A stretch of DNA of 63,557 bases, filler included, from Reclinomonas americana ATCC 50394 (Eukaryota), in NCBI GenBank assembly GCA_048213135.1. It is 5 parts of 2 records of this genome, joined end to end, with 100 filler letters (N's around TTAATTAATTAA, not from the genome) between each part and the next. Parts side by side here need not be neighbours in the genome. Positions count along the whole stretch, not along the records: positions 41,865 to 54,841 come from PS015100.1; 4 more parts are not named here. One strand, written 5' to 3'. Of the stretch, positions 6,900 through 54,941 are shown in pieces. Every line of letters starts with the position of its first letter. The stretch's first letter is position 1. A model generated the notes under the pieces. It did not search any database. It was given only the letters and a program-made list of their open reading frames with translations, and was not told the DNA's origin. The position numbers were made by a program, and so were the translations under genes.

Positions 6900-9800
6900 A
6901 TGCAACGACGCGAAGGCCCGACGCCGAGTTTCGATGAGATAAGGCAGCAGTATGATGAAGCCAGACGGCTCTGCGACAGCGGTGATCATGCCACTGCCGC
7001 ACCCATTCTCAGTTCCTGCCTAAGAGATTTTGAGGACTTGCGCGGCCCTGACGACGACGCGACTCTTGTGTGCGCCTTCAAGTATGCGGTCGCGCTCCGC
7101 GAGTCGGGAGACACGCAGAGCGCATTGTCGCTGTTCGACGATGTGCTGGAGAGGAGGAAGCGTCTGTTGGGCGCGACTCACAAGAGAACGTTGCAGACAG
7201 CTTTCAACAAGGGTCGCACACTTGTGGCACTCAAGTGGTACGACGAGGCCATTGCATTGCTGCGCGACACGGCGGCGAAGCAGGAACGCTACGTGGATGA
7301 AGGTGATCAGGAGGTGTTGGATACGTTACACTGTCTGGCTTTCGCGCTCGTCGGTAACAGGGAGTACGAGGAGTCAGTTCGAGTCTCGCGTGACGTTGTG
7401 CGCCGGAGACGTGAAGTGTTGGGTGCGGATCACCCTGCAACACTGACGAGCATGCACAATATGGCATGCGCACTGGCCGATGCAGGTGGCTTGACCAATC
7501 TGGAGGAGGCTTTGCAGATCTACGAGGAAGTCTTGCCGCTTCGTCGTCGCGTGCTGGGGCCGAACCACGTGCACACCCAGCACACTGCCGACAACCTTTC
7601 CGAAACCCAAGCAGAGCTGGCCGTTGCGCGGCGACGTCGTGACGCTGCACGCATATTCCGTGCGTATCCTTGCATCATGCTTCGTGTTTATGCGCTTGTA
7701 CATGTTGACGGTTTTGCGTGATGCGCAGCGCCTTCGAGGTCTTCAGCCTCTGCGTACATCGCACCACCACATACACCGCGGCCAGTGCACCGCTCGCCAC
7801 CAGTGTACGACGCACCGCCAGCGTTCGGCTCTCCTCCGGCAGCAGCAGCATACGTCCCTCCACCAGTGCTACCTCAAGCCCCAGCTGCAGCATTCGCCGC
7901 TCCTGCAGCGTACGGCTATCCTCAAATGTACCCACCACCAGTGTACGACGCACCTCCACCGTACCAAGCACCCCCAGTGTTCTCCCCGGCTCCACGAATG
8001 GCTTACCCGCCGGTGAGGAATGACAACATTATTGATGCTATGTTGACGCTCATCGAGATTGAGTGCAACAGCCACCGCAAGTGAACTCGGGCCGCGAGCA
8101 GGAGCTGGAGGCGACTATTGCACAACTGCAACGCGACCTGACGGAGCAGCGAGCGACAGCACAGCAGCAAGATGCCACGATTGCGCAGGTGCTGGATGAG
8201 GCGGACGTGCAGCAGGCGGCTGTCCGCGAGCGAACAGCTCAAGTGGATGCATTGCAACAGCAAGTGCAGCAACATGAAGCCACCATTGCGCAGCTGAGGC
8301 GGGAGGTAGAGGAGCAGCGGCAGCAGCAGCAGACGGCTGTCCGCGAGCGAAATGCCCAAGCGGATGTGTTGCAGCAGCGCGTACAACAACAAGATGCCAC
8401 CATTGGGCGATTGCGGCGCGAGGTGGAGATGCAGCGGTTGCATGTGCAGCCACAGCGAGAAGCCGCGGTGCAGCGCTTGCGCGAGGAATGTGCGGCTCTT
8501 CGAGTCTCCTTGGAGCGAATGGACGAGCAGCGGCAGCAAGAGTACGACCGCGCACAGCGACTGGCCGCTGATTTGGCCGCCGCGCAGCACGAGCTCAACC
8601 ATCGTGGTGAGTGCGAGTGAGTGTGCGGCAAAGATTGCTTGTGCTCATGTGCAGCTTTGCAGTTCCACTGACGGTCTTTTCGTGGAGGCAAATCGGCGCC
8701 ATGACAAATGGCTTTGCTCGTCGTCTTGGCGTGGGTGGACAGGGAAGCGTGTTTTCTGGCGCGTGGAAGGAGCAGCAGGTGGCCGTCAAAGTGTTCGACA
8801 GCGATGCGCCGTGGTGCATCGAGTCGTTCTCCAATGAGGTGAGAGTATTCGTGTGGGGAGACCTGGCCATGGTGATCATCGCATTTTGTTTACCGTTATT
8901 TGCTGGGTGCAGTTGGAGAAACTAAAGAATGTGATGGTGCCTGGCGTGGTTCGCATTATTGGGTTTGCCGAGTCTGACCGTGGTGAAAAGTGCATTGTGC
9001 TGGAGGCCATGAGGTTGGTGGATATTGCGTATTCCTGCTGGTTGCATGCAATTCTTCTGGCACGTTGTTGCTGATGCACTGTCTTTCTCTTGATCATTCT
9101 CAAGCGAGCACAACCTCGAGCACCGGTTGTTGGAGTATCAAGCACTCGGATTGTCCGTCATGGCCATCGAGGAACGGATGACATGCCTGCTTCGCTGTTC
9201 GGAGATCGTGGCGGCATTGCACAGGTGAGGCAGCGGATGAAGTGGGAAGTCGGGTGCTTGTGGTCGTTTCTCATCATCTCTTGTTGTACAGGATGGTTTG
9301 TGTTACTGTCGTGCTACTTGATGACGTCGTTTCTCACTCCCCTTCCCTCTCACTGTCACTGCTTTCTGTTCTCGCCTTCACCCAGAATGGTGAGTCTCCG
9401 TGAACTCGGTTGTGAGTGATTTGACCTCGCTTGTTAACCATGATTCGCAGTCATTCACCGCGACCTGAAGCCCGCCAACATCCTGTTTGACGAGCGTGGC
9501 CAGGCGTGCATCTCGGACCTGGGAATCGCGCACTGGTTCCGCACCGCCGGGGTGAGTGTGCACTCTCTCTTCCCTCGCCTTCCCACCGATAATATACTCA
9601 TGAGTGCACGTGTGGCGACAAGCAGACACACCTGTCGGTGCAGTTTGCAGGCGACCACGACTATGCCGATCCGCAGGCACTGCGTGGCATTCTGCGCCCG
9701 ACTGCCGACGTGTACATGTACTGCCTCGGACTCATTCTGCTGCAACTATTCTCCAGTCAGCCGATTGCCGAGGTACACAAGTGGATCGAGGGAATGGTGG

Positions 9801-12718: not shown

Positions 12719-15052
12719 TGGACTTTCTCGGCTGCGATGAACCCCCCGTGGGCTCTCCCACAGCAGCAGCAGCCGCATCACGTGCGAGCAAGTCATCATC
12801 GACTGCAATGGTGTGTGTGTGTGTGTGTGTGTGTTTGATCGATCACCACCATGCCCACTCTTCTCTCGCACGCACAGCACGTGGACTCCACTGGTGCGCG
12901 TCGTGCCACTGCTGCACAGAAGAAGCGCGCGCGCGGGAGCACACGACACGACGATGACGATGACGAAGAAGATGATGACTTTGATGATGATGATGATGAT
13001 GCAATGCACGAGGACGACGACGACGATGACAGTGGCGAGTACGATGATGATGCACCAGTGGTCAAGCGATCGCGACGTGCATCAGCAGCAGCAAAGAAGA
13101 AGAGTGGGAAGAGTGGGAAACGAGGAGGCGGAAAACGCGCAAGTGCCTCTGCCTCTGTGGCGGCGGCCACGGTGAGTGCGACCAGTGAGGTGGCATTGGC
13201 GTATCCCGAGGCCGAGGGAGACGCGGGACCGGTGAGTGAAGAAGCGTCTTCTTGTGTAGTTGTGTGTGGTGACTGACAGCTGTGCGCAGGAGCGGTGAGC
13301 ACAAGCCCGGTGACGTTGTTGTTGGTGTTGAATAGACAGATGGTGACATGTAGTGTGCGCAGTGTCGATTTGGATGTGTATGAGGCGCGTCTGGCAGTGG
13401 GAAGATCGCGATCACTCAAGAAGGTTTTCTTCCTCTCGCGAGCGCGCGTCCGCTGCTGCTGCTGCTGCTGCCGACGCGCGTGTGTTTCTGCGTAGGTGAT
13501 TGAGCATGCGGCGAAGAAGCATCCGGGCAGCTGGCGATCGCAGTTTGCGTTGGGATTGTTGCATATTCGACTGGGTGATGCGGAACAGGTGCGTGCGTGT
13601 ATTTGCTGCGTTGTCGAGCATGGGAACTGAGTGAGACACGCAGGCGCAAGCGGCGTTTACGCGGGCCAAGGCGGCGTTTGCCAGTATGGTTGCGAAAGTG
13701 GTGGAGGTGCAGCGGCGGCAGGTACGCTCTCCCCCAGCCCCCGATTGAATGCCTGGCGCTGTCGCTCCTCACTCCGTGGTGCAGCATGTGCTGAGTGCGC
13801 TGCCGTCGGAGTTTGTGGCGCGCCTTCCGCCGCGGTTGCAGGCGCTCGAGGCCATGCTTGACAATCACCTGGCGCAGGCACAGGCCATGCACGGTGCCAG
13901 TGGAACTGTGTTGCAGAGTGTGCAGCAGCAGCTCACGGCCGCCACGAGAGTTTCGTGCAACAATCAATCTATGGATCCCCTTTCCTCTCTTACCGGCGTG
14001 TTGCCTCCTCCCGCCCGCAGAAAGACAATGGCCAGCCGGACATTTGGAATAATCTTGGCCTGTTGCATCTGAATGCCTCCAAGTGGGAGGGCGCCAAGAC
14101 CATCCTCACTCCGATCCACAAAATCTTCCCCGAATACTACGATGCGGTCACCAACTTGGCCCTGAGCTACTTTGGTGCCATGGACGTTGCGTCTTGTGAA
14201 GCGCTCTCCAACCCATCGACGACATGCGTCGCTGACAGCCGAAGAAATTGTGTGCCGTCGCAGTTCGAGACGGCCACTAAGTTGTACCAGGATGTGCTTC
14301 TCAGCGATCGCCAGCATCTGGAGGCACTGAGCAACTATGGCGTACTATTTTTGCGACAGCGTCTGTTACGTGGAGAGAGAGAGAGAGAAAGCGAGCGTGC
14401 GCGCGAGTGGGAGGTTCACTTACCGGTCGCTGCACAGGTTTCCGTACGCTGTCTCCATCTTTGAGGATGCACTCGAAGTCAATCCGCGCTCCGCCTACGT
14501 GTGGAACAATCTGGGCGTGTCCTACAGGTTTCTCAATCGTCTGCAAGATGCGCACGACTCGTTCGCCAAGGTGCGTTGTTATTTCGCAGTTCGTACTGGT
14601 GACAGCTGCTCATCTCTTGCGGCAGGCGGCCAAGCTAGAGACCACGGACGAAGTGCGACACATTATTCTCGTGAATCAGGCCTCGGCACTCGTCGGACTC
14701 AGCAGGTTCGACGAGGCCGAGGTCATTTACGAGCAAATTCTGGAGGCCACTGAACGTCGCTCGGCGCATGCGCTCATCGGCCTCGCGAGGGTGCGCTGCG
14801 TGTTTCGTTGCCGCTCAATACTTTGTATTGGCTAACTGTATCGAACAGTTGCGTGCACGGCGACAAGAGGAGCTGCTGCAGAGCGACGGCAAGACAGACG
14901 CCACTGACGCGCTTGCCGCACAAGGTGTGGTGTTGTCTCTCTTTCTCTCTCTCTCTCGGTGTTTCCTTACTCTTGCTTGTGCGAATACAGCGCTGGCAAC
15001 CTACATGGAGGCGTCTCGGCTCAACGACAAGGACTTTTATCCGCTGTTCCAG
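12719..15052 (+). CDS. TPR protein with acidic/basic low-complexity N-terminus, 5' and middle exons (copy on contig 12238-15077)
   Basis: PDIWNNLGLLHL, YDAVTNLALSY, EALSNYG, AYVWNNLGVSY; in-frame splicing includes a 5-nt exon at 13290-13294. Confidence 0.75.
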
Positions 15053-18468: not shown

Positions 18469-20185
18469 NNNNNNNNNNNNNNNNNNNNNNNNNNNNNNNN
18501 NNNNNNNNNNNNTTAATTAATTAANNNNNNNNNNNNNNNNNNNNNNNNNNNNNNNNNNNNNNNNNNNNCAAACATGACGACCCGCCGGTGCACACAATCG
18601 ACTGCAACAGCTCCGCGCGCAGATCCATGTCGCACTTGTTGATCGACGACATGACAAGCTCGGCCACACCTCGTTCCTCGGTGCCGATGGTGGTCGGGTG
18701 GAAGAGCGCCTCGGAGCACTTGAAGAGCTCCGACTGCAACTCCACCATCTCTGAGCCCTCGCCCAACTGGAACGGTACCGGTCGTGTGCCCGACGCATCT
18801 ACATACGTCGATGAGCAGTCGCCGCAATTCACCACACAATCGAGCCCACACGCCTCACCTCGTCGATGGTCCGTCGAGCAGAACGCGTACTGCTCCTTTA
18901 ATCGCTTGCACGTGTCTCGCTCCGCCGCAGTCCGCACATGCAAATCGTGCTCCGCCAACAACTGCACCCCACATGAGCCACGACGGAGTATTCCCTCGCT
19001 CTCTCTCTACCCACTCCACGCGCAACTCGAATAAAGTGATCAGTGACATCGCGTCCGCCAATCTTCGACAGCTCCACCGCGCTGCTGACGGCGAACCCAT
19101 CAAACACCGGAATCGTGTGCATCTGCGAGTGGCCCACGTCGATGACGAGCCCTGTATGGAACACTTGAGCACAGACAATGGGTGGGGAAACGAGAGAGAG
19201 CAGATGAAGGTACTCGCCAGTGAGACGCCCCGTGGAGTAGATGGACAACAGTCCCTGCAACGCGAAAAACACCGACGACGCCGAGTACNNNNNNNNNNNN
19301 NNNNNNNNNNNNNNNNNNNNNNNNNNNNNNNNNNNNNNNNNNNNNNNNNNNNNNNNNNNNNNNNNNNNNNNNNNNNNNNNNNNNNNNNNNNNNNNNNNNN
19401 NNNNNNNNNNNNNNNNNNNNNNNNNNNNNNNNNNNNNNNNNNNNNNNNNNNNNNNNNNNNNNNNNNNNNNNNNNNNNNNNNNNNNNNNNNNNNNNNNNNN
19501 NNNNNNNNNNNNNNNNNNNNNNNNNNNNNNNNNNNNNNNNNNNNNNNNNNNNNNNNNNNNNNNNNNNNNNNNNNNNNNNNNNNNNNNNNNNNNNNNNNNN
19601 NNNNNNNNNNNNNNNNNNNNNNNNNNNNNNNNNNNNNNNNNNNNNNNNNNNNNNNNNNNNNNNNNNNNNNNNNNNNNNNNNNNNNNNNNNNNNNNNNNNN
19701 NNNNNNNNNNNNNNNNNNNNNNNNNNNNNNNNNNNNNNNNNNNNNNNNNNNNNNNNNNNNNNNNNNNNNNNNNNNNNNNNNNNNNNNNNNNNNNNNNNNN
19801 NNNNNNNNNNNNNNNNNNNNNNNNNNNNNNNNNNNNNNNNNNNNNNNNNNNNNNNNNNNNNNNNNNNNNNNNNNNNNNNTAATGGTTTGTCTTTTCCCCT
19901 TCGGTCGCATCGTATCTTTCTATCTCTCCCTCCCTCCCTCTCTCTCTCTCCGTTCGTATCTTCCCTTGCCTGACCGCGTGTGCAGGATTCGGCAACCGGC
20001 TCACACAGGGACTGCTCGAGCGCGCACCCTACGCGCGCACCAAGGTCGTGCTGCCGAAGGATCGCAGATACGGCGTGTGGGCGGGCGCGTCGACGTTTGC
20101 GTCGTTTAGTGTGTTCCCACAGTTGCGGATCACCAAGGAGGAGTACGAGGAGAATGGGCCAGCGATTTTGCACACGCGCATGTGA
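18214..20185. CDS. Actin-related protein split over contigs: exon 1 on + at 18214, middle exons on - at 18569-19288, last exon on + at about 19986-20185
   Basis: DFGSDSCKAGFAG; TGLVIDVG; LFKCSEALFHP; SINKCDMDLRAEL..IVCTGGSS; AERYTACGRARRR region ending WITKEEYEENGPAILH-like motif. Confidence 0.75.
18513..18524. other. Artificial scaffold-joining spacer TTAATTAATTAA (also 28121-28132, 41809-41820, 54886-54897)
   Basis: Identical 12-mer with stops in all six frames, always flanked by N runs of about 44. Confidence 0.95.
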
Positions 20186-28058: not shown

Positions 28059-28176
28059 AGAAGAAGAAGAGAGAATNNNNNNNNNNNNNNNNNNNNNNNN
28101 NNNNNNNNNNNNNNNNNNNNTTAATTAATTAANNNNNNNNNNNNNNNNNNNNNNNNNNNNNNNNNNNNNNNNNNNN

Positions 28177-33809: not shown

Positions 33810-36800
33810 TCATACTCGAACGGCTGCCGCGGCAGGTGGTTCTGGCACAAACGCGTGGAAGCCGAACTCGTCTCCTGATTCAAAACGGGCGACCGAGGTG
33901 CGACAGAGAGGACACTCGCCGCGACGGTCGACAACTTGCTGCGCACAATTGCGACACACCACCTCGTGTCCGCATGGATGCAGTCGAGTGTTGCGCACAC
34001 TGTAACAGAGAACACAGGCACGACGGCACGACAATGCAGTCAGATCGCGCAACTCGGCCACCATGTCGTCGGCACTCGGGCGGCGATTGGGTCGATAGTC
34101 GACACAGCTGCAGCACCCCGAACCATGAGGGAAATGAATGACAATGTGCAGGGAGCAGCTCACTCACCGCATGGCCAAGCGCACAAGACGCCGACTGACA
34201 GATGTCGGCAACCCCCGACCGACCGTGACATCGGCTAGTTGCACAGCGGCCTCATCGAGTCTCGCCACGTCGTCGTCCTCCACCATTCCCTCAATCCACT
34301 TGTGCACTCTTGCAATTGGCTGACCGGAGAACAGTTGCAGCAGAATGAGTCCGAGGCAGTACACGTCGGTGCTCGGGCGCAGAATGCCACGCAGTGCCTG
34401 TGGATCAGCATAGTCGTGGTCGCCGGCAAACTGCACCGACAGGTGTGTCTGCTTGTCACCACACGTGCACTCATGAGTATATTATCGGTGGGAAGGCGAG
34501 GAAGGGAGAGAGCATACTCACCCCGGCGGTGCGGAACCAGTGCGCGATTCCGAGGTCCGAGATGCACGCCTGGCCACGCTCGTCAAACAGGATGTTGGCG
34601 GGCTTCAAGTCGCGATGAATGACTGCGAATCATGGTGAATAGGCGAGGTCACATCAACTACAAACGAGCTCACGAAGTCTCACCATTCTGGGTGAAGGCG
34701 AGAACAGAAAGCAGTGACAGTGAGAAGGAAGGAGAGTGAGAAACGACGTCATCAAGTAGCACGACAGCGACACAAACCATCCTGTACAACAAGAAACGAT
34801 GAGAAACGACCAAACGCACCTGCTTCTCATTGCAGCTGTCTCACCTATGCAACGCCGCCACGATCTCCGAACATCGAAGCAAACACGTCATCCGTTCCTN
34901 NNNNNNNNNNNNNNNNNNNTGAGTGTGCGGCAAAGATTGCTTGTGCGCTCTCGCTCATGTGCAGCTTTGCAGTTCCGCTCACGGCCTTCACCTGGGAGCA
35001 AGTCGGCGCCATTACAAATGGCTTTGCTCGTCGTCTTGGCGTGGGTGGACAGGGAAGCGTGTTTTCTGGCACGTGGAAAGAACAAGGGGTGGCTGTGAAG
35101 GTGTTCAACAGCGATGCGCCGTGGTGCATAGAGTCGTTCTCCAATGAGGTGAGCGCTGCGTGTGTCGAGAACAGGTGATCATCGCATTGTGTTGATAATT
35201 GTTTGTGCGGCACAGTTGGAGAAACTGAAGAGTGTGACGGTGCCTGGTGTGGTGCGCATGATTGGTTTTGCCGAGTCTGACCGTGGAGAAAAGTGCATTG
35301 TGCTGGCGGCCATGAGGTTTGTGGAGATCGCGTATTCTTGATTACGTGCAATTCTGGTCATTCTCCTGACCATTCTCAAGCGAGCACAACCTCGAGCACC
35401 GGTTGTTGGAGTATCAAGCACTCGGATTGCCCGTCATGGCCATCGNNNNNNNNNNNNNNNNNNNNNNNNNNNNNNNNNNNNNNNNNNNNNNNNNNNNNNN
35501 NNNNNNNNNNNNNNNNNNNNNNNNNNNNNNNNNNNNNNNNNNNNNNNNNNNNNNNNNNNNNNNNNNNNNNNNNNNNNNNNNNNNNCTCGCACTCACCACG
35601 ATGGTTGAGCTCGTGCTGCGCGGCGGCCAAATCAGCGGCCAGTCGTTGTGCGCGGTCGTATTCTTGCTGCCGCTGCTCGTCCATGCGCTCCAAGGAGACT
35701 CGAAGAGCCGCACATTCCTCGCGCAAGCGCTGCACCGCGGCCTCTCGCTGCGGCTGCACATGCGAGAGCGCAGTGCGCAGCTGGTGTATTGTGGTCTGGT
35801 TGGCGGCGAGTGACTGACGCAGGTTGACCACAGTGGTCTCCATCTCACGAGCACGGTTGTACCAGCCCGTAGCTCCTGTTTCTTGAAGCTGTGCGTGCGC
35901 TCGTTGCTCCTCCAGCTCCAGCTGCAGGCTTCGACCAGTCGCTTGTGCTGCGCCCACTTGAGCGGTCAACTGCACAACCTGTCGCCGCTGCTCCTCCGCC
36001 TCGCGCCGCAGCTGCGCAATGGTGGCCTCGTGTTGCTGCACTAGCTGCTGCGCGGCATTCATCTGCGTGGTCCGCTCGCGAACTGCGGCTTGCTGCGCCT
36101 CCAGCTCGCGACGCAATTGGGCGATGGTGGCTTCGTGTCGTTGAGCCTGCTCTTGCGACGCATCCACTTGGGCAGTCCGCTCGCGGATAATTGCTTGCTG
36201 ATCGTTCTTCTCGCGTTGCAGTTGCGAAATAGTGGCATCGCGACGCTGCACTCGCTGCTGCGCTGCATCCACTTGAGCGGCCAGCTCGCGGACCGCCGCC
36301 TGTTGCTCTTCCACCTCACGCCGCAGTTGCGCGATGGTTCCTTCGTGTTGCTGTGTCGCCGCTCGATGTTGCGCCAGGTCACGCTGCAGCTGGGCGATGG
36401 TGGCCTGCGACTGAGACTGCTCGCTGCGAAGCGTGGTCAACTCTCGCGTCTGTTGCCGCACAAGGCGCTGCTGCTCTACCAGATCGCGTTGCAGTTGTGC
36501 GTTTGCTGCCTCCAGCTGCTGCTCGCGGACCGAGTTCACCGGTGGCGGCTGGTTGGTGCACGTGAGGTAAGTGTCGGGCAAGCATCGGAACTTGTCAGTT
36601 TTCTCTCACCAGAGAACGCACTGGCGGGGGAGTGGACGCAGAAGCAGAGGAAGCTGCAGTCGCGGATGAACAACTAAAGTGTGGAGGATGAATCATAAGT
36701 GTGCGTCACTGACGTACCAGATGGGGAGGTCGTCGACGTAGTCTTGCGGAGTGCCGCCAGCTTTGCACGGGTGTTGGTAATGTGGTCAGCCGTGGTTTTG

Positions 36801-38904: not shown

Positions 38905-39106
38905 GTACACAAGGCAGCGGTCAGCGCGCGCGTCAGAGTGAGACACAGAGAGNNNNNNNNNNNNNNNNNNNNNNNNNNNNNNNNNNNNNNNNNNNNNNNN
39001 NNNNNNNNNNNNNNNNNNNNNNNNNNNNNNNNNNNNNNNNNNNNNNNGCACCGTCAACGATATGAGGACAAGGAGAAGAGTGATGACTTGCGCATGCCAA
39101 CGCAAC

Positions 39107-39767
39107 GTTCTCGTCAATCAAGTGCAGGCAACCGTCATTGGGGACGAATGCCGTCACCTTCTTGCCGTTCTTGATGAGCTGCACACGCACGCACTTACGA
39201 ATGGCAGAGTTCGGCTGCTTGGCCTCAATGCCGACTGCACAACAGCGAATGAATATGAGCCCAAAGAGACAAAGCGTTGGGTGAGAGAGAGAGCGCACAC
39301 ACACCCTTCTCGACGACAATGCCCTTGGCGTGGGACGAGCCTGCGCGCATCACAAGCAAAATCAGTCTCTCACACAAACTATGCCTGCTCCCTCAAAAGA
39401 CTCAATCAAAAGTGCACCTCCGAACGGGTTGGCCTATCAAGAAGGAGCACAACAGTGAGCAACCACGCACAGTCGGATGACGCACACTCTCTGTTGGCAC
39501 ACACCTTCAGGGCAGTGCCAAAGTGAGCCTTCTTGTAGGTCTTGTCGGCTGCACACAGAAAGTGAGTCACTCTGGAACCTCATCACAGCTGCTCTCTCAC
39601 AAACACGCACCCCAGCGGTTCAGCTGACGAGTCAGCTGTTCTCACACACACGCACAAGGAGGCGCAAACGAGTGAGCGACATGACGCACTTGAGCAAAGA
39701 CAGGCACTCACACACAAACCTTCAGCTTGCGACCAGCGTTCACACCACGAGGCTTGTGCGATCCCAT
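39107..39767 (-). CDS. RPS23: 40S ribosomal protein S23 (uS12), coding exons 1-6
   Basis: [72 protein letters not shown]. Confidence 0.97.
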
Positions 39768-40058
39768 GTTTTTCTCGGTTGTGTACAGAAAAGTCTGCGC
39801 ACACGAGAGAGCGAGAGAGTGAGAGAGGAGAGGCGCATGCCGCACATGCACATGACCACCATCACGCACACACGCAAACGCTCTCACAACGACGACACGC
39901 GCTCTCTGACTCCCACGCAACACACACACGCCACACACGCACAGCAAGACGACAGAAGGCAGCGAGAGACACAGAGGAGGCAATGTGCGCGCCCAGACAC
40001 GAACCTGTTGATGGTGAGTGAACCAATGGAACGGACGGTGAATTGACACATACTCAGA

Positions 40059-40368
40059 ATGTCACTGCGTGGCGACATCACCGAGCAGCAGGTCGTTGGC
40101 CGTCTGCAAGAAAGCGGGCGCTTTGATGCATTCCGCAAGCAAATCATTGAGACACTGCATCAGAATGTTGCGCACAATGAGTGAGAGACAGAGAGGGAAA
40201 CCCCATCGGAACTGACACTCTCTCTCTCTCTCTGTGACAGGGTGCCATGGAGCAACTGCAGAAACGCGCAATGCGCATTGTATCGGCCAGTCGCGCCATT
40301 CAAGACGCGTGCGAGCGCGATACGCCCAAGCGCGAGTTGTTTGCCGCGCTCAAGTCGGAAGTCTTCAA
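40059..40368 (+). CDS. 5' exons of Shg1/BOD1-like (COMPASS-associated) domain protein
   Basis: ITEQQVVGRLQESGRFDAFRKQII is the GxFDxxR hallmark; ends in a phase-2 donor compatible with the acceptor at 38904. Confidence 0.7.
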
Positions 40369-41417: not shown

Positions 41418-42047
41418 ACTGCATGTGACTAGCCTCGTTTGCTCCTGTTGCAGAGGCACTCGCTACCCATGTGTTGTGTCGGTCGTCTGGTAAATCTCGA
41501 AAGCCTGAAAACAACTTACTGACTGAGCGAGCGAGCAGGCAGGAGTGAGAGAGGGTGTGTGGCACCATGGGGTTGCATTTACAAGCACGCAGAAAACAGG
41601 GGCATGTATACACAAACAGAGGGTTGGACAGAGGACGGAGGAGAGAATGAGAAGAGAAGCTACCCTGTAGCTGCACCACCATAACAATGAGTTAAACAGC
41701 GACAGCGGGGGACGAGCACGGATGCACGCCCTCACACTGCGGAGCACGGTGGAGAAGGAAGTGGNNNNNNNNNNNNNNNNNNNNNNNNNNNNNNNNNNNN
41801 NNNNNNNNTTAATTAATTAANNNNNNNNNNNNNNNNNNNNNNNNNNNNNNNNNNNNNNNNNNNNGGAAAAACAAGAGGAGGAGATATAGAAATAGGTGTG
41901 TGTGGACACTGCAAGTACCAAGCCAGGCAGCTGACAAAGCGGTACGGACATTAGGGCGACAAGAGTGCCTGTGCAGAGAGAGAAAAGGAGGGTGAGCCCA
42001 CTGGGCGGCAAGCACAGCAACAGTTTTTGAAGCACCGCACCATTGGT

Positions 42048-44794
42048 TTAGGCCTTCAGCGGCTTCTGGAACACGCAATAGTACCTGCAGAGTGGCCGTC
42101 ATGTCAGCGAGTGCTGCTGCTTTACAAAAAGAACAAAGAGAGACGACGGCACGCAACATGGGAGTGAAGATACCGCACTCGCCAGCGTCCGACAGATCCT
42201 TGGCGGTACGCATGAGCAGCGAGCTCACACCGACGGTGCCCTTCGGGGCCCAGCGGATGAACTCCAGGAACTTGCAAGTGAGATGCGTCACCCAGAACGA
42301 AATGCGGCCGCGCTTCAGCGGGTTCCACCACGGGATCTGCAAGTGGATCGCTGCTGTGAGCAACGATGCACGACCGAGCAGAGGCTCAAATAATCTTGCA
42401 AACCTCAGCGTCGTCCACCAAGTCCTTCTCCATCACCACGTCAAAGCCGACCGAGCGGGCCTTCTCGCCAATGTCGACACGGCGGCGCATCTCGGGCAGG
42501 CCGTTGCCGAGGTTGATGGCCTCGATGATGCCGCGGTGCTCGGGGTTCTCGTGATCGTACTTGTCGGTCTGCGTATTGTTCAAGCTTGTGAGCACTGACT
42601 GCATCCTCCAAGCGTCTCAACAGCTGTGCCACTCACCGTCACCCACTCGTACACGGCAAACTTGCCACCGGGGCGCAGCACACGGTACGCCTCGGCGTAC
42701 ATGTCCTCCACCTTGGGCGCGTGGCAGCTGGCCTCAATCGCGAAAATGGCATCAAACGAGTTGTCCTCGAACGGCAGATCGAGGAAGTTGGCCTGCAGCA
42801 CGCGGCACGTGGACGAGAAGCCGTCCTTCTCAATGTACTCGTTGGCGCGCTTCACCTGGTACTCGCAGATGGTGACGCCGGTGATGTGGGCGCCAGAGAA
42901 GCGAGCAATGTTGCGCAGCGGACCGGCCACTNNNNNNNNNNNNNNNNNNNNNNNNNNNNNNNNNNNNNNNNNNNNNNNNNNNNNNNNNNNNNNNNNNNNN
43001 NNNNNNNNNNNNNNNNNNNNNNNNNNNNNNNNNNNNNNNNNNNNNNNNNNNNNNNNNNNNNNNNNNNNNNNNNNNNNNCCGCAGCCGGCGTCGAGCACCT
43101 GCTGACCGGGCTTCAACTCCAAATCGTCGGCAATGCGCTTCTCGTGGCGCAGCATCGACTCCTTGAACGACTCGTGGTTCATCTGCTGCGTGAAATGGAA
43201 CGACTGGCCCTGTGTGTGTGCGTGTGTGGCAAAAAGCAAGGCGAATGAGTTGACCGAACACACTCGGAAAAACAGAGCATCTTGACGGGGGAATCGAGGC
43301 GCAGAGAGGAGCGTGTGTGCAGTCAACGAACCCATCCATACGTGTAAAAGTCCTGCGCATGCATGCAGCGGAGATGACACAACAATGATGAGTGTGTGCG
43401 AAATGCGAGGCGAATCGCGCGCGACTCATGACACACACACTCACCGTCACCAAGTTGTAGAACTTCTCCACCTTTTGCGGAGTTGTTCCACTGCCACGCA
43501 CGCCACTCTGCCCAGCAAACACGATAANNNNNNNNNNNNNNNNNNNNNNNNNNNNNNNNNNNNNNNNNNNNNNNNNNNNNNNNNNNNNNNNNNNNNNNNN
43601 NNNNNNNNNNNNNNNNNNNNNNNNNNNNNNNNNNNNNNNNNNNNNNNNNNNNNNNNNNNNNNNNNNNNNNNNNNNNNNNNNNNNNNNNNNNNNNNNNNNN
43701 NNNNNNNNNNNNNNNNNNNNNNNNNNNNNNNNNNNNNNNNNNNNNNNNNNNNNNNNNNNNNNNNNNNNNNNNNNNNNNNNNNNNNNNNNNNNNNNNNNNN
43801 NNNNNNNNNNNNNNNNNNNNNNNNNNNNNNNNNNNNNNNNNNNNNNNNNNNNNNNNNNNNNNNNNNNNNNNNNNNNNNNNNNNNNNNNNNNNNNNNNNNN
43901 NNNNNNNNNNNNNNNNNNNNNNNNNNNNNNNNNNNNNNNNNNNNNNNNNNNNNNNNNNNNNNNNNNNNNNNNNNNNNNNNNNNNNNNNNNNNNNNNNNNN
44001 NNNNNNNNNNNNNNNNNNNNNNNNNNNNNNNNNNNNNNNNNNNNNNNNNNNNNNNNNNNNNNNNNNNNNNNNNNNNNNNNNNNNNNNNNNNNNNNNNNNN
44101 NNNNNNNNNNNNNNNNNNNNNNNNNNNNNNNNNNNNNNNNNNNNNNNNNNNNNNNNNNNNNNNNNNNNNNNNNNNNNNNNNNNNNNNNNNNNNNNNNNNN
44201 NNNNNNNNNNNNNNNNNNNNNNNNNNNNNNNNNNNNNNNNNNNNNNNNNNNNNNNNNNNNNNNNNNNNNNNNNNNNNNNNNNNNNCGACACAAAAGGTAA
44301 GAAAATTGTGAACAAACGGACATGAGAATCGAAAAAGTTTTTCGCAAACGTGTGTGAGAAGAGTTCCCACACAAACGGAGCGAGAGCGAGAGAGACAACA
44401 CATGACAACACAAGGCAAGAAGAACGCAGCAAAAAAAGAAAAGACAAACAAAACAAAGAGTGTGAAATGTCCATGTCACGCACTCACACTCACGCGCGCT
44501 CACCTCATAGTACGAGACGTAGTCCTGCAGATCATTCTCTGCGACCTGGCGACCGCGGGACTCGTGGAGCAGCTGTGTGCGACTCTCGCCATTGGGGCCG
44601 CGCGAGGTGAGAATGTGGCGAATGAGGAAGCCGGCAAAAGTCAGGAGGCACACAGTCACGGCGACAAACGTCGGCAGTCCGCCGTCAAACGGGGACATCT
44701 GTGTGTGCGGGAGTGGGAGATGAGTCATCGTGTGTGGGCGGTGCGCGAGGCGGGAGGCGGGGAGAGACGAAACACTTTGCATGAGGGACATCAT
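42048..44794 (-). CDS. SMT1: Sterol 24-C-methyltransferase (SMT/ERG6 family) with N-terminal TM helix
   Basis: FYNLVTDFYTYGWGQSFHF, VLDAGCG, IEASCHAP, VLRPGG.FAVYEW, GIFTPMY..QKP; start approximate. Confidence 0.92.
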
Positions 44795-44943: not shown

Positions 44944-47900
44944 TTACTGCTGCGTGAGAGAAACGGAGGCGGCGCGACGGTGGTGCGCGGCGGCGAGCTT
45001 GACCATCGGGTCCATGGTGTGCTCCTCGTAGCGCACGTCCTCGCCGAGGAACGGGCACTTGGTGCTGCACTTGGAGACGTCGTCTGTGTGCATGTGTGTA
45101 TTACAAGAGAGCAGAGGTGAGGCGGAGAGGGAGAGCGTGTGTGCGCGCACAAGGGGGTAACACAAACCGGGCAGCGCAAACTCCTTCACGTCGACAGTGT
45201 TGACGGCAAAGTCGCCAAAGTTCCACGTCACGCCCGTGGGGCCTGCGAGAGGGGAAGAAAGAGGGGAAGGGAGAGGGGGAGGGGAAGGGAGGAGGGGAGG
45301 GGGAAGAAGGTGAGGGTGAGGGAAAAGGGTTGTGGGACAAGCAATGCAGAAGGCAAGAGGCGAGGGGAAGGAAGTGAGCAAGAAAAGGGAGAACAGGGAC
45401 GTGAGAGGAGAGTTGCAAAGTGGCGAGACGTGACGAGGAAGGGGTACGTGACAGAAAATAGCGGAGAGGCGAAGGAGGAGGTGAGAAAGGGGAGGGCGGA
45501 GGAATACGAAGAAAGGAGGGATGAACATGGCGATACGCAAGAATGCGAGAGACGAGGGGAGAATGGGCTGGGAAAGGAGTGTTGCAACAAGGGCTGAGGA
45601 GAGATACGGGTTGTACGAGAAGGCGAGAGATGAGGGGAGAAAGGAAAGGGAGGAAAGAGGGGAAGGGAGGGTTGAGGCCAAGGGGAGTGAGAAGCGAGTT
45701 GCATAACAAGAGATGAGGGGAAAGGAAGTGAGAAAGAAAACAAAAGACCAAGGGAGAAGAGGGACGTGAGAGGAGAGTTGCAACAAGTCGAGAGGCGAGG
45801 GTGGAGAGTCACAATGATATGGGCGAGAAGGTGAGACGAGGAGCAAAGTGAAGTCAGGGGAGAGTTGCTTGAAGGCGAGGGATGAGGGGAAAGGGATGTG
45901 AGAGGAAGGCGATGGATGAGGGGAGAAAGGTATGCGACAAGAGAGTTGCAACAGGCGAGAGATGAGAGGATTGAGGCGTGTGAGAGGAGAATTACAACAT
46001 AGTGAGATAAGTGTTGCACGAGGATGGGGAAGAACGGGACGTGTGAGGAGGGTTGCGGAAGGATAGCGTACCGTCGCGGAAGTGCACGTCAAAGCCGGTG
46101 GTGACATCGGTCCAGTAGCCTGCGAACGAGAACAGAATGAGGCAAGTAACAGAAGAGGATTGCATCGAGAGCAATACGCACCGAAACCCTCCTCGCCGAC
46201 TATTATGGCGTGGGCGAATAGAGAAGAGATAAGCGAGTGAGTGTCACACCATGCAACTGTGGAAGAGACACAGTTTTACGCACGCCAGTAGTTGCACTGG
46301 TGAGTCTGCGAAGTGGAGGTGATGAGCACACGATGCCTGGCCAGCGAGGAGTAAGATACATGCGTTCACCTTGCCGTAGTAGTCAATGGCCGACTCGACG
46401 CTCGAGTAGTTGAAGCCGCGGAGGAAATCGGGCGGGACGGCGCCGACATTGGCGGTCATCATGCAGCACTGTGGGGGGAAGGGGGTCAAAGGGAGAAGGA
46501 GGGGAAGGAAGCTGGAGACAAGAAACATTGACAAAAGTAAGAGCAGAGAGAGGTGAGAGATCGAGGATGACGGAGGCGAAGGGAAGGAGGAGGAAGACAA
46601 GGAAATGGAAAGCGGCGAAGAGAGCAGAGAAGGAAGAGCAGAAATTCGAGAAAAACATTGACAGACAACGAGGAAGACGTAGACGAGAAAGGGTGCGGAA
46701 GAAAGGGAAGGGAACGGAAAGGAAGGGGAAGGGGGAGGAGGAAGAAGACAAGGAATGGGGAAACAGTGAGGTCGAAGGAAGGCAAGAAGGGAAAAGGAGG
46801 CGAAGCAGCAGAGAGGAAAAGCTGAAACAGGAAAAGAGCAGTGAGAGGTGATGAGGAAAGGTGAATTGGAGTGACAAGGGAACGGAAAGGAAGGGGGAAG
46901 GGGGAAGGAGGAAGAAGGAAACAGTGAGGTCGAAGGGAGGCAAGAAGGGAAAAGGAGGCGAAGGAGCAGAGAGGAAGAGCTGACACAGGAAAGAGCAGAG
47001 AGAGGCGATGACGAGGATTGTGAAGGTGGATTGGAGTGACAGGGGAACGGAAAGGAAGGAAGGAGGAGGAATAAGGAAAGGGGAAGAGGAATGCAAGGTC
47101 GAAAGGCAAGAAGGCGCAAAGAGGCGAAGGAGCAGAGACGAAGAGCTGAAACAGGAAGAGAGCAGTGAGAGGTGATATCGAGGAAGACGCAGCTGACAGG
47201 GATGGGATGAAAAGAACAGAGAAAGGGGAGGTGACGGGAGATATTCCGAGAAATATGTCGAAGGAAGAGAGACGGCGGCGAACGGAAGAGAGAGAGGAGG
47301 AGAGAGAGGCACGGGCAGGAAGCGACTCACCTCCAGTCCAGTCTGCGGCTGGTGCACATAGATACCTGCACACCACACACACCATGACCAAACAAACAGC
47401 ACACACATACTAACACACACTGCCACACAAACCAGCGGGCAGGAAGTACAACTGGCGCAAACAAGCAGTCAGTCACATACGCGAGGAGACAAGAGCGAAA
47501 ACACAACCCTCCGCTCACCTGGCACGGGAAACGATAGGCGTCCCAGTGCACAAGCCTGCACAGAGAGAGAGAAAGAGTGAGAAACCAGTCACAAAAGCTG
47601 AGGAAGAAAAACCAGTCAAGAAAACGCAACGCTAATCATGATGCACCAAAGACAGAGACACAGGTGAGCAAGTCAGTCACAGTGACCAGTAACCACACAC
47701 ACACAAAGAACGCAACGCTGCATGAGTGAGAAAGAGAAAGAGAGTGAGTACGCGGAGAAATACTCTCCTTCTTACATGCTCAACTCCACTCACCAAGCAG
47801 TGCTGGAAGTAGTCAATGCGCTGCGCCTGAATCGTGTTGTCAAAGCGGTACAGCATCTGACTAGTGGCTGCAAACACACACAAACACACACACATAACAC

Positions 47901-48560: not shown

Positions 48561-48867
48561 CATTACCATTGGAAACTGCACGCGTGTGCACACAGTAAGT
48601 AACAGCAGTGAAGAAGAACAGACTGCAAGAGAGAGACGCAACACTTTGGCACGACGGAGTTGAGACCAAAGGGCGCGCTGTTTGTGTTGTGCAGTCAGTG
48701 ACCCCCGAGTTGGCATCGGAGTTTGTGTATTGAGTGACAGTGACAGTGCGTAACGTAAAGGAGGTGGGCCACACGGGCTTGTCGGGAGCGGCGGTGCATG
48801 TGTAGGCCAAGGCCGCGGCGAGGGCGAGGGCGATGAGGAGAAGGCGGTGAGCTGTGCGCGCTTGCAT
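44944..48867 (-). CDS. Secreted ependymin-related (EPDR+)-like protein with many small exons
   Basis: Signal peptide, P.WP..F, YRFD..AQRID, PC..F..IY..P..CC..VG..PPDF, CNYW, F..P..C..C pattern; the frame requires two 1-nt exons. Confidence 0.6.
46700..47175. repeat. Three degenerate purine-rich tandem units of about 160-175 bp inside a long intron
   Basis: AGGTCGAA..GGCAAGAAGG..AGGCGAAG.AGCAGAGA.GAA.AGCTGA.ACAGGAA recurs at about 46769, 46927 and 47096. Confidence 0.7.
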
Positions 48868-49492
48868 GTCTGGAAAGTGCAGTGTGTCCTGTGTCCAATA
48901 ATCTGCAAAGGTGAATCGGGGCTCCGATTATGCACGTGTGAGTAGACGGGCGATTAGCTGTACTCGCGGGTCCGCGCATTGCAAGCGCTTGCATGGCGGT
49001 CCGACAGCTCTTACGTGGAATTTCTCGAGCGTCGAGCTGCCTCCTGTGACAAGCAAGCATGCCTGGTCATCTATGAGCGAAGGATATGCAACTTTACTAA
49101 TCCAAACAGCAACACAGCTGCATGATGATCACCATCTTGAGTGAGCACCAGAAACTCAGACATCACGAAAAAAAAGCGAGAAAAAGTCGAGATGGCTAAT
49201 GCTGGCGTTTCTGCAAGAGAAACCACGGCTCATGACAAGCATGGATTTGACGACATGTATGGCAAGCGTATAACACGGTCCGAGCTTTAATGCAAGCGAA
49301 AGTGACGAGAGAAGCAAGAAAACACAAACGTCGACGTCGTAGGGCTCGATATCGATAGAAGAGATTACTGACAGTCGAATGCTGAGGACGTCTCGACTGG
49401 CGTTGCAAAGCAGGTCCTACTTCGACTCTCCACGCAGTAATTAAGAAGAGCGTTCCGTTTTGGTCGGACGAAAGATGCATTGTGTAAACGTA

Positions 49493-54841: not shown

Positions 54842-54941
54842 NNNNNNNNNNNNNNNNNNNNNNNNNNNNNNNNNNNNNNNNNNNNTTAATTAATTAANNN
54901 NNNNNNNNNNNNNNNNNNNNNNNNNNNNNNNNNNNNNNNNN

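Follow-up and report, generated by a model that had tools for sequence, protein, structure and literature searches.

Two candidate single-nucleotide exons in tandem may reconcile the phases of flanking exons in a gene of Reclinomonas americana

How can two neighbouring exons be joined when the phase in which the first ends does not match the phase in which the second begins? The question is raised by a gene on the minus strand of a 63,557-nucleotide (nt) stretch of DNA from Reclinomonas americana ATCC 50394 (assembly GCA_048213135.1; five parts of two records joined by filler), here called the window, along which all positions are counted. The gene runs from about 48.9 kilobases (kb) to a TAA at 44944, and two of its exons, which we call A and B, are separated by 238 nt. 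On the sequence evidence set out below we lean slightly towards the interpretation that this interval is made up of three introns which would leave two exons of a single nucleotide each, C 47717 and C 47631, and we regard it as rather likely that the locus contains at least one such exon.

The argument starts from the reading frames. Coding potential was scored as codon log-odds, using a table trained on ten coding stretches of the window (1990 codons), among them two TPR open reading frames confirmed by Pfam and four exons of the sterol methyltransferase gene positioned by homology. In the proposed frame exon A reaches +13.4 bits, as against −7.4 in the only other frame that is open, while exon B scores +3.7 bits as against −1.8 and −3.2. 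The frame of exon B is moreover fixed via the chain of exons that leads down to a 99-nt exon, and for each of the 19-, 35- and 99-nt exons of that chain the frame with the top codon score is the one that the chain demands. Since the frames of exons A and B are both supported, the join from 47794 to 47555 lacks 2 nt (mod 3). A single in-frame intron of 238 nt would need the other open frame of exon A and was rejected at its −7.4 bits. The two Cs together with the first G of exon B give CCG (Pro) and restore the frame, QHCL-P-LVHW; both are needed to reconcile the phases of the supported flanking exons, though further in-frame paths exist. A sequence-only reading of the same stretch had assigned phase 0 to the end of exon A and phase 2 to the start of exon B, and both the codon log-odds and the downstream exon chain uphold this assignment.

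The interval itself is laid out in Table 1; on the minus strand, every coordinate and splice junction of the sequence-only reading was matched to the base. Each of the three units carries a CTCAC-type motif and a pyrimidine-rich 3′ part, with the first AG past the motif as its acceptor, and the distances from branch motif to intron end are 27, 33 and 22 nt for units 1, 2 and 3, respectively. At both Cs a single base is thereby flanked by what looks like a functional 3′ splice site, with branch motif, pyrimidine tract and YAG, and by a 5′ splice site. The two Cs are 86 nt apart, and the same donor, GTTGCGTT, stands behind each of them. Read-through of unit 2 from C 47717 meets a stop, and no stop-free path retains the whole unit.

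Table 1. Features of the target gene and of the kinase genes of the window (a slash marks a proposed splice junction)
Feature	Position	Strand	Sequence and remarks
Exon A, 74 nt	47867..47794	−	...TSQMLYRFDNTIQAQRIDYFQHCL; ends in phase 0 with ...CAG CAC TGC TTG, then GTGAGT
Intron unit 1, 76 nt	47718..47793	−	GTGAGT ... TACTCAC ... pyrimidine tract ... CAG
Candidate 1-nt exon C	47717	−	CATGCAG/C/GTTGCGTT; putative base 1 of CCG
Intron unit 2, 85 nt	47632..47716	−	GTTGCGTT ... CTGAC/CTCAC (branch-type motifs) ... TAG; contains (GT)n run
Candidate 1-nt exon C	47631	−	GATTAG/C/GTTGCGTT; putative base 2 of CCG
Intron unit 3, 75 nt	47556..47630	−	GTTGCGTT ... TTCTCAC ... CTCTTTCTCTCTCTCTCTGTGCAG; long CT tract, CAG acceptor
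Exon B, 37 nt	47519..47555	−	GTGCAG/G CTT GTG CAC TGG; G + LVHWDAYRFPCQ, starts in phase 2
19-nt exon LYFLPA(+G)	47433..47451	−	codon score +3.8; keeps the frame to the 99-nt exon
35-nt exon (G)IYVHQPQTGLE	47331..47365	−	codon score +5.2
99-nt exon CCMMTANVGAVPPDFLRGFNYSSVESAIDYYGK	46370..46468	−	codon score +15.1 bits; downstream frame anchor
Candidate 4-nt exon GATG	9292..9295	+	CAG/GATG/GTTTGT; protein kinase gene
Candidate 4-nt exon AATG	9386..9389	+	CAG/AATG/GTGAGT; protein kinase gene
Paralog copies of GATG and AATG	34778-34781 and 34684-34687	−	kinase paralog

The three units resemble the introns of this genome. They were compared with 25 curated introns, from which they themselves were left out and of which 13 had been picked via GTTGCG, hence a motif-biased set. 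The curated introns measure 57-130 nt (median 71) and end in CAG in 24 cases and in TAG in one, and a YTVAY motif lies 6-41 nt from the end in 20 of them; a second TAG acceptor is fixed via the S23 protein. Units 1-3 fall inside all curated ranges, for length, acceptor and branch distance alike, which bears out their earlier description as normal introns of 76, 85 and 75 nt. Over its 24 codons in the frame of exon A, unit 1 comes to −1.5 bits; the intron reference, made up of stop-free windows from other introns, has a mean of −2.7 bits (standard deviation (SD) 4.1, n=225), and nine held-out exons, the exon reference, range from +0.15 to +0.62 bits per codon. We also asked how alike the units are among themselves. 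The 62% identity between units 2 and 3 is the eighth highest among the 153 pairs formed by 18 introns (mean 54%, SD 5%), and an unrelated intron at 2127 matches each of them as well as, or better than, the other unit does. At an identity of only this rank, there is no support for unit 3 having arisen from unit 2 by recent tandem duplication, and the likeness well beyond splice signals by which introner-type copies are recognised was not found between the two units. Automatic calling of introns by codon score returned 1871 candidates, with 387 left after filtering, and other runs were too insensitive; pooled hexamer enrichment was uninformative.

GTTGCG, the donor motif behind both Cs, is a genuine 5′ splice motif in this genome. 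GTTGCGT occurs at 27 sites in the window, where 11.6 are expected, and this number was reached in none of 100 shuffles; at eight of the 27 sites, at least 8.7 bits of coding signal flank both sides of an interval of 59-125 nt. The donor at 42157(−) is fixed by homology at the C-terminus of the sterol methyltransferase (..GIFTPM/YYCVFQKPL as compared with GIFTPMYLMVARKPL in relatives), the junction being ...GIFTP(AT/GTTGCGTG...CTGCAG/G)YYCVFQKPLKA followed by the stop codon. Another, at 39106(−), comes directly after ..CLHLIDEN of the S23 gene, which we take to be a motif of ribosomal protein S23, and the GTTGCG sites at 830 and 59558 presumably belong to a RING-finger exon and a Myb repeat. 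Sites of the form GTTGCGT(T/G/C) include, among others, 444, 830, 2127, 3887, 4566, 14186 and 32200 on the plus strand and 60236, 59558, 42157, 39106 and 29022 on the minus strand. The motif is frequent beside GTGAGT and GTTTGT, the base preceding it is rarely G, and CAG-N often precedes it. Among the anchored introns (SMT1, S23, kinase and target gene) GTGAGN is the commonest donor, accompanied by GTTTGY, GTTGCG, GTGTGT, GTGCGT, GTGCAC and others, and neither a GC nor a GA donor was met in the 25 curated introns or in the S23 and kinase introns that were read. A search of open-access full text for GTTGCG together with 'splice site' and 'intron' found no paper, and we believe that this unusual 5′ motif, in its GTTGCGT form, merits recording in itself.

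A second locus of the window presents the same kind of problem and has the advantage of homologues. It is a protein kinase gene at 8663-9700 (+) with a paralog at 34380-34900 (−), the two being 94% identical and both micro-exons being kept in the two copies. Here the exon that ends ...GCA TTG CAC AG (9224) is out of phase with the exon that starts TC ATT CAC CGC GAC CTG AAG (9451), the latter matching positions 120-148 of Pfam Pkinase with an E value of 8.6e-8, and exactly 8 nt are needed between ...AALH and IHRDLKP to give AALH-RMN-VIHRDLKPANIL. The candidate 4-nt exons GATG and AATG, surrounded by introns of 67, 90 and 61 nt, would supply them best. With both micro-exons in, the alignment of the product ...EIVAALH-RMN-VIHRDLKPANILFDE with ...LEYLHMQGIVHRDLKPANILFDE and ...LEAIHAGGILHRDLKPANILF, from the two kinases retrieved from databases, is gap-free, while the omission of one or both leads to a frameshift and a stop; moreover, none of the nine exon differences that separate the paralogs changes an amino acid in these frames. 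Judged from the alignment, the window certainly needs an exon of 8 nt or fewer at the kinase locus, and most likely this locus comprises two 4-nt exons in tandem, an architecture that would be the same as that of the target locus. A single kinase exon, AATGGTGA, was also considered and is ruled out, because its GT donor is GA in the paralog.

Both strands of the window were scanned for chains of intron-like units, defined by the observed donor classes, a length of 55-130 nt, YTVAY at 10-40 nt from YAG, and gaps of 1-4 nt. Triple chains exist at three loci only, namely the target locus, the kinase gene and its paralog, as compared with a mean of 0.083 in 60 block-wise dinucleotide shuffles, of which five had any, and the triple chains of the window are non-random. 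The scan returned extra rows at the target locus, which stem from its acceptance of GTGCAC, within exon B, as a donor. Chain pairs are without clear enrichment, with eight observed and a shuffle mean of 3.4 and maximum of 8.

Several observations, some of which reappear with the rival readings below, weigh against two single-nucleotide exons. Unit 3 is open in the frame of exon B, and its 25 codons reach +5.4 bits, a score at the top end of the intron windows; codon use alone therefore does not exclude its retention. Donors of this genome are degenerate, with GTGTGT, GTGCAC and GTGCGT all used in the S23 gene, so that the (GT)n run of unit 2 offers usable rivals. The 11-mer shared by the two junctions is less striking than it appears, because AG-N/GTTGCG is common at ordinary exon ends: AGNGTTGCG has 13 occurrences where 3.3 are expected, the YAG-N/GTTGCG context is frequent at such ends, and CAGN precedes four of the 13 curated GTTGCG donors. 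Acceptor-donor pairs at a gap of 1 nt, counted in a simpler test than the chain scan, number only three as against 1.6 expected. What homology settles at the kinase locus is the total of 8 nt and no more; GATGGTTT, one exon of 8 nt with a GTGTTA/GTGTCG donor and an intron of 151 nt, may stand in place of the two. A 7-nt exon once proposed in the target gene itself (see below) failed, which shows how easily such readings go wrong. Finally, searches described below returned no orthologue, paralog or family for the target protein, and the residue between the two leucines is without comparison.

How much freedom the interval leaves to other readings can be counted. With loose outer borders, the GT-AG paths of at most three introns that stay in frame and meet no stop number 129, a total that reflects the openness of units 1 and 3 in the frames concerned. 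Once donor 47793 and acceptor 47556 are imposed and a path may have no more than four introns, none shorter than 45 nt, 12 in-frame, stop-free paths are left; the path through the two Cs is the shortest of them, the rest retain 14-56 nt, and those that contain no single-nucleotide exon draw on a GT of the (GT)n run. The path through the two Cs is the only one of the 12 in which all donors are GTGAGT or GTTGCG, all introns measure 75-85 nt and nothing non-coding-looking is retained; its rivals, those that keep unit 3 sequence aside, retain codons at −0.26 to −0.40 bits per codon, as compared with +0.30 to +0.64 in the accepted exons of the target gene. Among these rivals we consider it unlikely that, with unit 1 spliced out as far as 47718, one larger micro-exon begins at C 47717, extends into the (GT)n run and ends at a GTGTGT donor, in variants of 13 or 17 nt. 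In one version a 17-nt exon, CGTTGCGTTCTTTGTGT, is followed by a 145-nt intron to 47556, giving L-RCVLCV-L, and in others a 13- or 17-nt exon is paired with a second one of 6 or 19 nt (17+6 or 13+19 nt). Such paths, of 17, 23 and 32 nt, are in frame, stop-free and among the 12, GTGTGT serves as donor twice in the S23 gene of the window, and the SMT1 and S23 genes contain micro-exons of 16-25 nt whose placement is secured by homology or motif. However, an in-frame path through the GT run is expected by chance, as the run offers all three phases; the retained codons, at −0.26 to −0.29 bits per codon, look like non-coding sequence; the 145-nt intron exceeds all 25 curated ones; and two copies of the strongest donor motif, each right behind an acceptor, are ignored. 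It is quite improbable that only the first C is a single-nucleotide exon and that unit 3 is translated, be it wholly, as QHCL-P-LRFLDWFFFLSFCDWFLTLSLSLCR-LVHW, or in part, as a 19-nt exon followed by a 57-nt GTTTTT intron. The positive codon score and open frame of unit 3 speak for this. The insert would, however, be a hydrophobic low-complexity peptide whose T-rich codons explain the score; unit 3 combines a perfect GTTGCGTT donor and a CAG acceptor with a long CT tract and with TTCTCAC 22 nt before its end, and GTTTTT is absent among the donors of the curated, kinase and S23 introns.

Very improbable indeed, in our view, is a coding unit 1, in which exon A would be extended to C 47717 by VSGVEHVRRRVFLRVLTLFLFLTHAA and followed by a 161-nt intron from GTTGCG at 47716 to CAG at 47556. 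This path is in frame and stop-free, its 77 additional nt leaving a remainder of 2 on division by 3, and with a consensus donor and acceptor it requires no single-nucleotide exon at all. Against it, unit 1, with GTGAGT at its start, TACTCAC, a CT tract and CAG at 76 nt, is a textbook intron whose codon score is typical of introns, and the 161-nt intron lies above the curated range and would enclose a complete but unused acceptor-C-donor junction. There may, on the other hand, be no productive junction here, which we hold to be rather unlikely: the 238 nt could be a frame-shifting intron of a decaying copy or of a non-productive isoform, the assembly could contain an indel, or the boundaries could be other than GT, as with a GA donor lying 2 nt downstream or with GC donors, by which CGTT would be retained twice. 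The assembly is a gapped draft: 28 N runs interrupt the 63.6 kb, and one lies 260 nt upstream of exon A. The target gene has no detectable relatives, a possible exon 1 scores −5.4 bits, and the CGTT+CGTT and GT-extension readings are likewise in frame. Yet all downstream exons have strong coding scores and canonical sites as far as the stop codon, the SMT1 and kinase exons are without frameshift relative to their homologues, as is the S23 gene when judged against what we take to be the S23 sequence, and the lack of any GC or GA donor among the curated, S23 and kinase introns argues against non-GT boundaries. Two consensus donors 1 nt behind acceptors, and a sum that restores the frame, would also be left unexplained. 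The proposal of tandem single-nucleotide exons made in the sequence-only reading is partly supported: its frames, signals, sizes and GTTGCG donor hold, and in-frame paths that do without single-nucleotide exons also exist.

If the path through the two Cs is the one taken, the interval would lose three separate introns of U2 type (76, 85 and 75 nt), every one of them with its own donor, CTCAC-type branch, pyrimidine tract and YAG, and two Cs would be left in the mRNA, as ...CACTGCTTG-CC-GCTTGTGCAC. We infer both that the spliceosome uses these sites and that it does so stepwise. From what is established about splice-site recognition, an acceptor and the next donor could not be occupied simultaneously when they are 1 nt apart and their footprints overlap, and the introns would for this reason have to be removed one after another. 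This might proceed from 5′ to 3′, leaving first TTGC/GTTGCG and then TTGCC/GTTGCG, or it might begin with the middle unit, whose removal would create a 2-nt exon. The process would resemble recursive splicing, save that one base would be kept at each step. All recognisable splice signals at the target locus are intronic, and we would give even chances to the proposal that the spliceosome defines introns wholly by intronic signals (a GTTGCGT-type donor, CTCAC and the first AG), CCG being built, obligatorily in sequence, from three exons of which two are single bases. Under the same proposal, abutting introns with 1-4 exonic bases between them would be removable, precisely because their definition is wholly intronic.

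The remainder of the target gene provides the setting for this interval. Past the 35-nt exon follow an intron of about 0.86 kb, the 99-nt exon, a small exon, a 48-nt exon, an intron of about 0.8 kb, a 76-nt exon and the last exon. The two long introns, at 45250-46070 and 46470-47330 (−), are 0.8-0.9 kb in length, CT-rich and of low complexity, and stand among introns of 60-130 nt; the one of about 0.86 kb holds a 158-nt tandem repeat in 2.6 copies (46750-47176). A small exon is also required at 46120-46369 (−), between the 99-nt exon (...YYGK) and the YWTDV exon, and two candidates come into question: 46305-46284, of 22 nt (THQCNYW), and 46256-46250, of 7 nt (TTGCATG). The latter was dropped as the preferred reading, since the 22-nt exon fits equally well or better. 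At the other end of the gene, a possible exon 1 (48867..48643) with a signal-peptide-like start (ATG 48867-48865) lies past a 360-N gap, and its membership in the gene is uncertain because of its poor codon score.

The target protein could not be assigned to a family in the collections that were searched, although it may bear some resemblance to ependymin-like domains. Pfam searches with single exons gave nothing credible, the sole match being BldD-like_C at an E value of 0.015, which is below the cut-off and attributable to chance, and Pfam returned no family for exon 1. The 99-nt exon gave one chance match (E 1.1) in a sequence search of the PDB, and neither it nor exon 1 had a usable match in the ESM Atlas. 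A word-based homologue search with the 99-nt exon and its flanks produced no match, and among 380 pattern-matched stretches from a metagenome scan no relative of the target gene was confirmed. A search for paralogs within the window returned self-matches and a weak match of 19 amino acids at 49001-49057 (E 0.026), judged to be chance, and no Rfam family was matched.

Small exons and unusual junctions are found elsewhere in the window as well. The S23 gene, at 39048-39810 (−), has exons of 25, 44, 16 and 36 nt followed by one of 128 nt, and displays a TAG acceptor, GTGTGT, GTGCAC and GTGCGT donors, and a GTTGCGTT donor after ...LIDEN; a 5-nt 'exon' GCATA was discarded when the gene was read, as it lies inside an intron. 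In the S23 leader, at 39990-40060 (−), a 49-nt unit GTATGT...CTCAC...CAACAG is followed at once by GTTCGT, that is AG/GT with zero bases between, which may represent two abutting introns or a recursive-type site. The sterol 24-C-methyltransferase gene at 41.9-44.8 kb, whose nearest database relative is 61% identical, contains a 21-nt exon, DFYTYGW (43332-43352, −), fixed by alignment to ...LFYEWGWGQSFHF of its relatives. Inverted, near-identical TPR-like segments share introns at 13289 (+)/16240 (−), 13689/15850 and 14186/15353, and include a possible 5-nt exon GAGCG between CGCAG and GTGAGC. As regards the assembly, paired runs of 44 Ns set 12 bases apart occur at 54842-54941, with similar ones at 18469-18568, 28077-28176 and 41765-41864; the 12 bases at 54.9 kb are TTAATTAATTAA, a scaffolding linker with a stop in all frames and not biology. 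(GT)n and (GA)n microsatellites border several gaps, including the gap 260 nt upstream of exon A.

Were the tandem pair real, it would be the first of exons of minimal size, the lower limit for an exon being reached twice running, and together with GATG and AATG of the kinase genes it would mark repeated gain of introns at adjacent positions. It would further imply that exon sequence adds nothing to recognition in such a system, and that neighbouring sites with overlapping footprints are usable and impose an order on the reactions. For experimental purposes the locus would then constitute a compact natural substrate, of 238 nt, for studies of ordered or recursive splicing and of intron definition. 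Gene finders and read aligners overlook exons of this kind and label the gene as frameshifted, which already matters for at least one kinase family in the window; that aligners fail to pick up an unannotated exon of this size is reported for APC11 (PMC8831610).

Single-nucleotide exons as such are already known, and it is the tandem pair that would be new. In the papers cited here, confirmed cases are few, namely two plant gene families and one in Fusarium (PMC8831610, PMC12940212), in agreement with the statement of the sequence-only reading that they are established but rare. They comprise plant APC11 and VPS55 (PMC8831610; PMC4674806) and Fusarium CYP621A (PMC12940212), each with RNA evidence, and the exon of CYP621A was first deduced from out-of-phase boundaries and confirmed by reads years later (PMC12940212). 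These exons share with the target locus the AG-N-GT arrangement, the reconciliation of phases between supported exons and short, ordinary flanking introns; they are, however, single, confirmed by RNA-seq or reverse transcription PCR and conserved across species, whereas the candidate pair of the target locus would supply two bases of one codon in tandem and would use GTTGCGTT and not GTRAGT as donor. The nearest adjacency described in PMC8831610 is the pairing, in rice, of a 5-nt exon with a neighbouring exon of 12 nt, and a search of open-access full text found no tandem single-nucleotide exons.

Two classes of stepwise splicing also invite comparison. The ratchet points of Drosophila likewise place an acceptor and a donor side by side within what would be a single intron and lead to its stepwise removal, but they leave zero nt and lie in very long introns (PMC8605326, bioRxiv 10.1101/006163), whereas the target would keep one coding base at each step within 238 nt. 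In place of the AG/GT with zero exonic nt that marks ratchet points, one C is found at both junctions, and owing to the base that would be retained at every step and to the shortness of the interval, the target locus falls outside the class of recursive splicing. Fungal stwintrons are complex intervening sequences that are likewise removed by consecutive reactions in a set order, but there a splice signal of the outer intron is broken up by an intron nested inside it (PMC9024468, PMC5587772), whereas the units of the target locus are adjacent, and in each of them donor, branch motif and acceptor are intact, with none split. A further counterpart is offered by the window itself, where the kinase locus has three introns (61-90 nt) in a row and tiny exons whose total restores the frame; its exons would be of 4 nt, with the 8-nt total fixed by the kinase alignment and by synonymous-only divergence, and those of the target locus of 1 nt.

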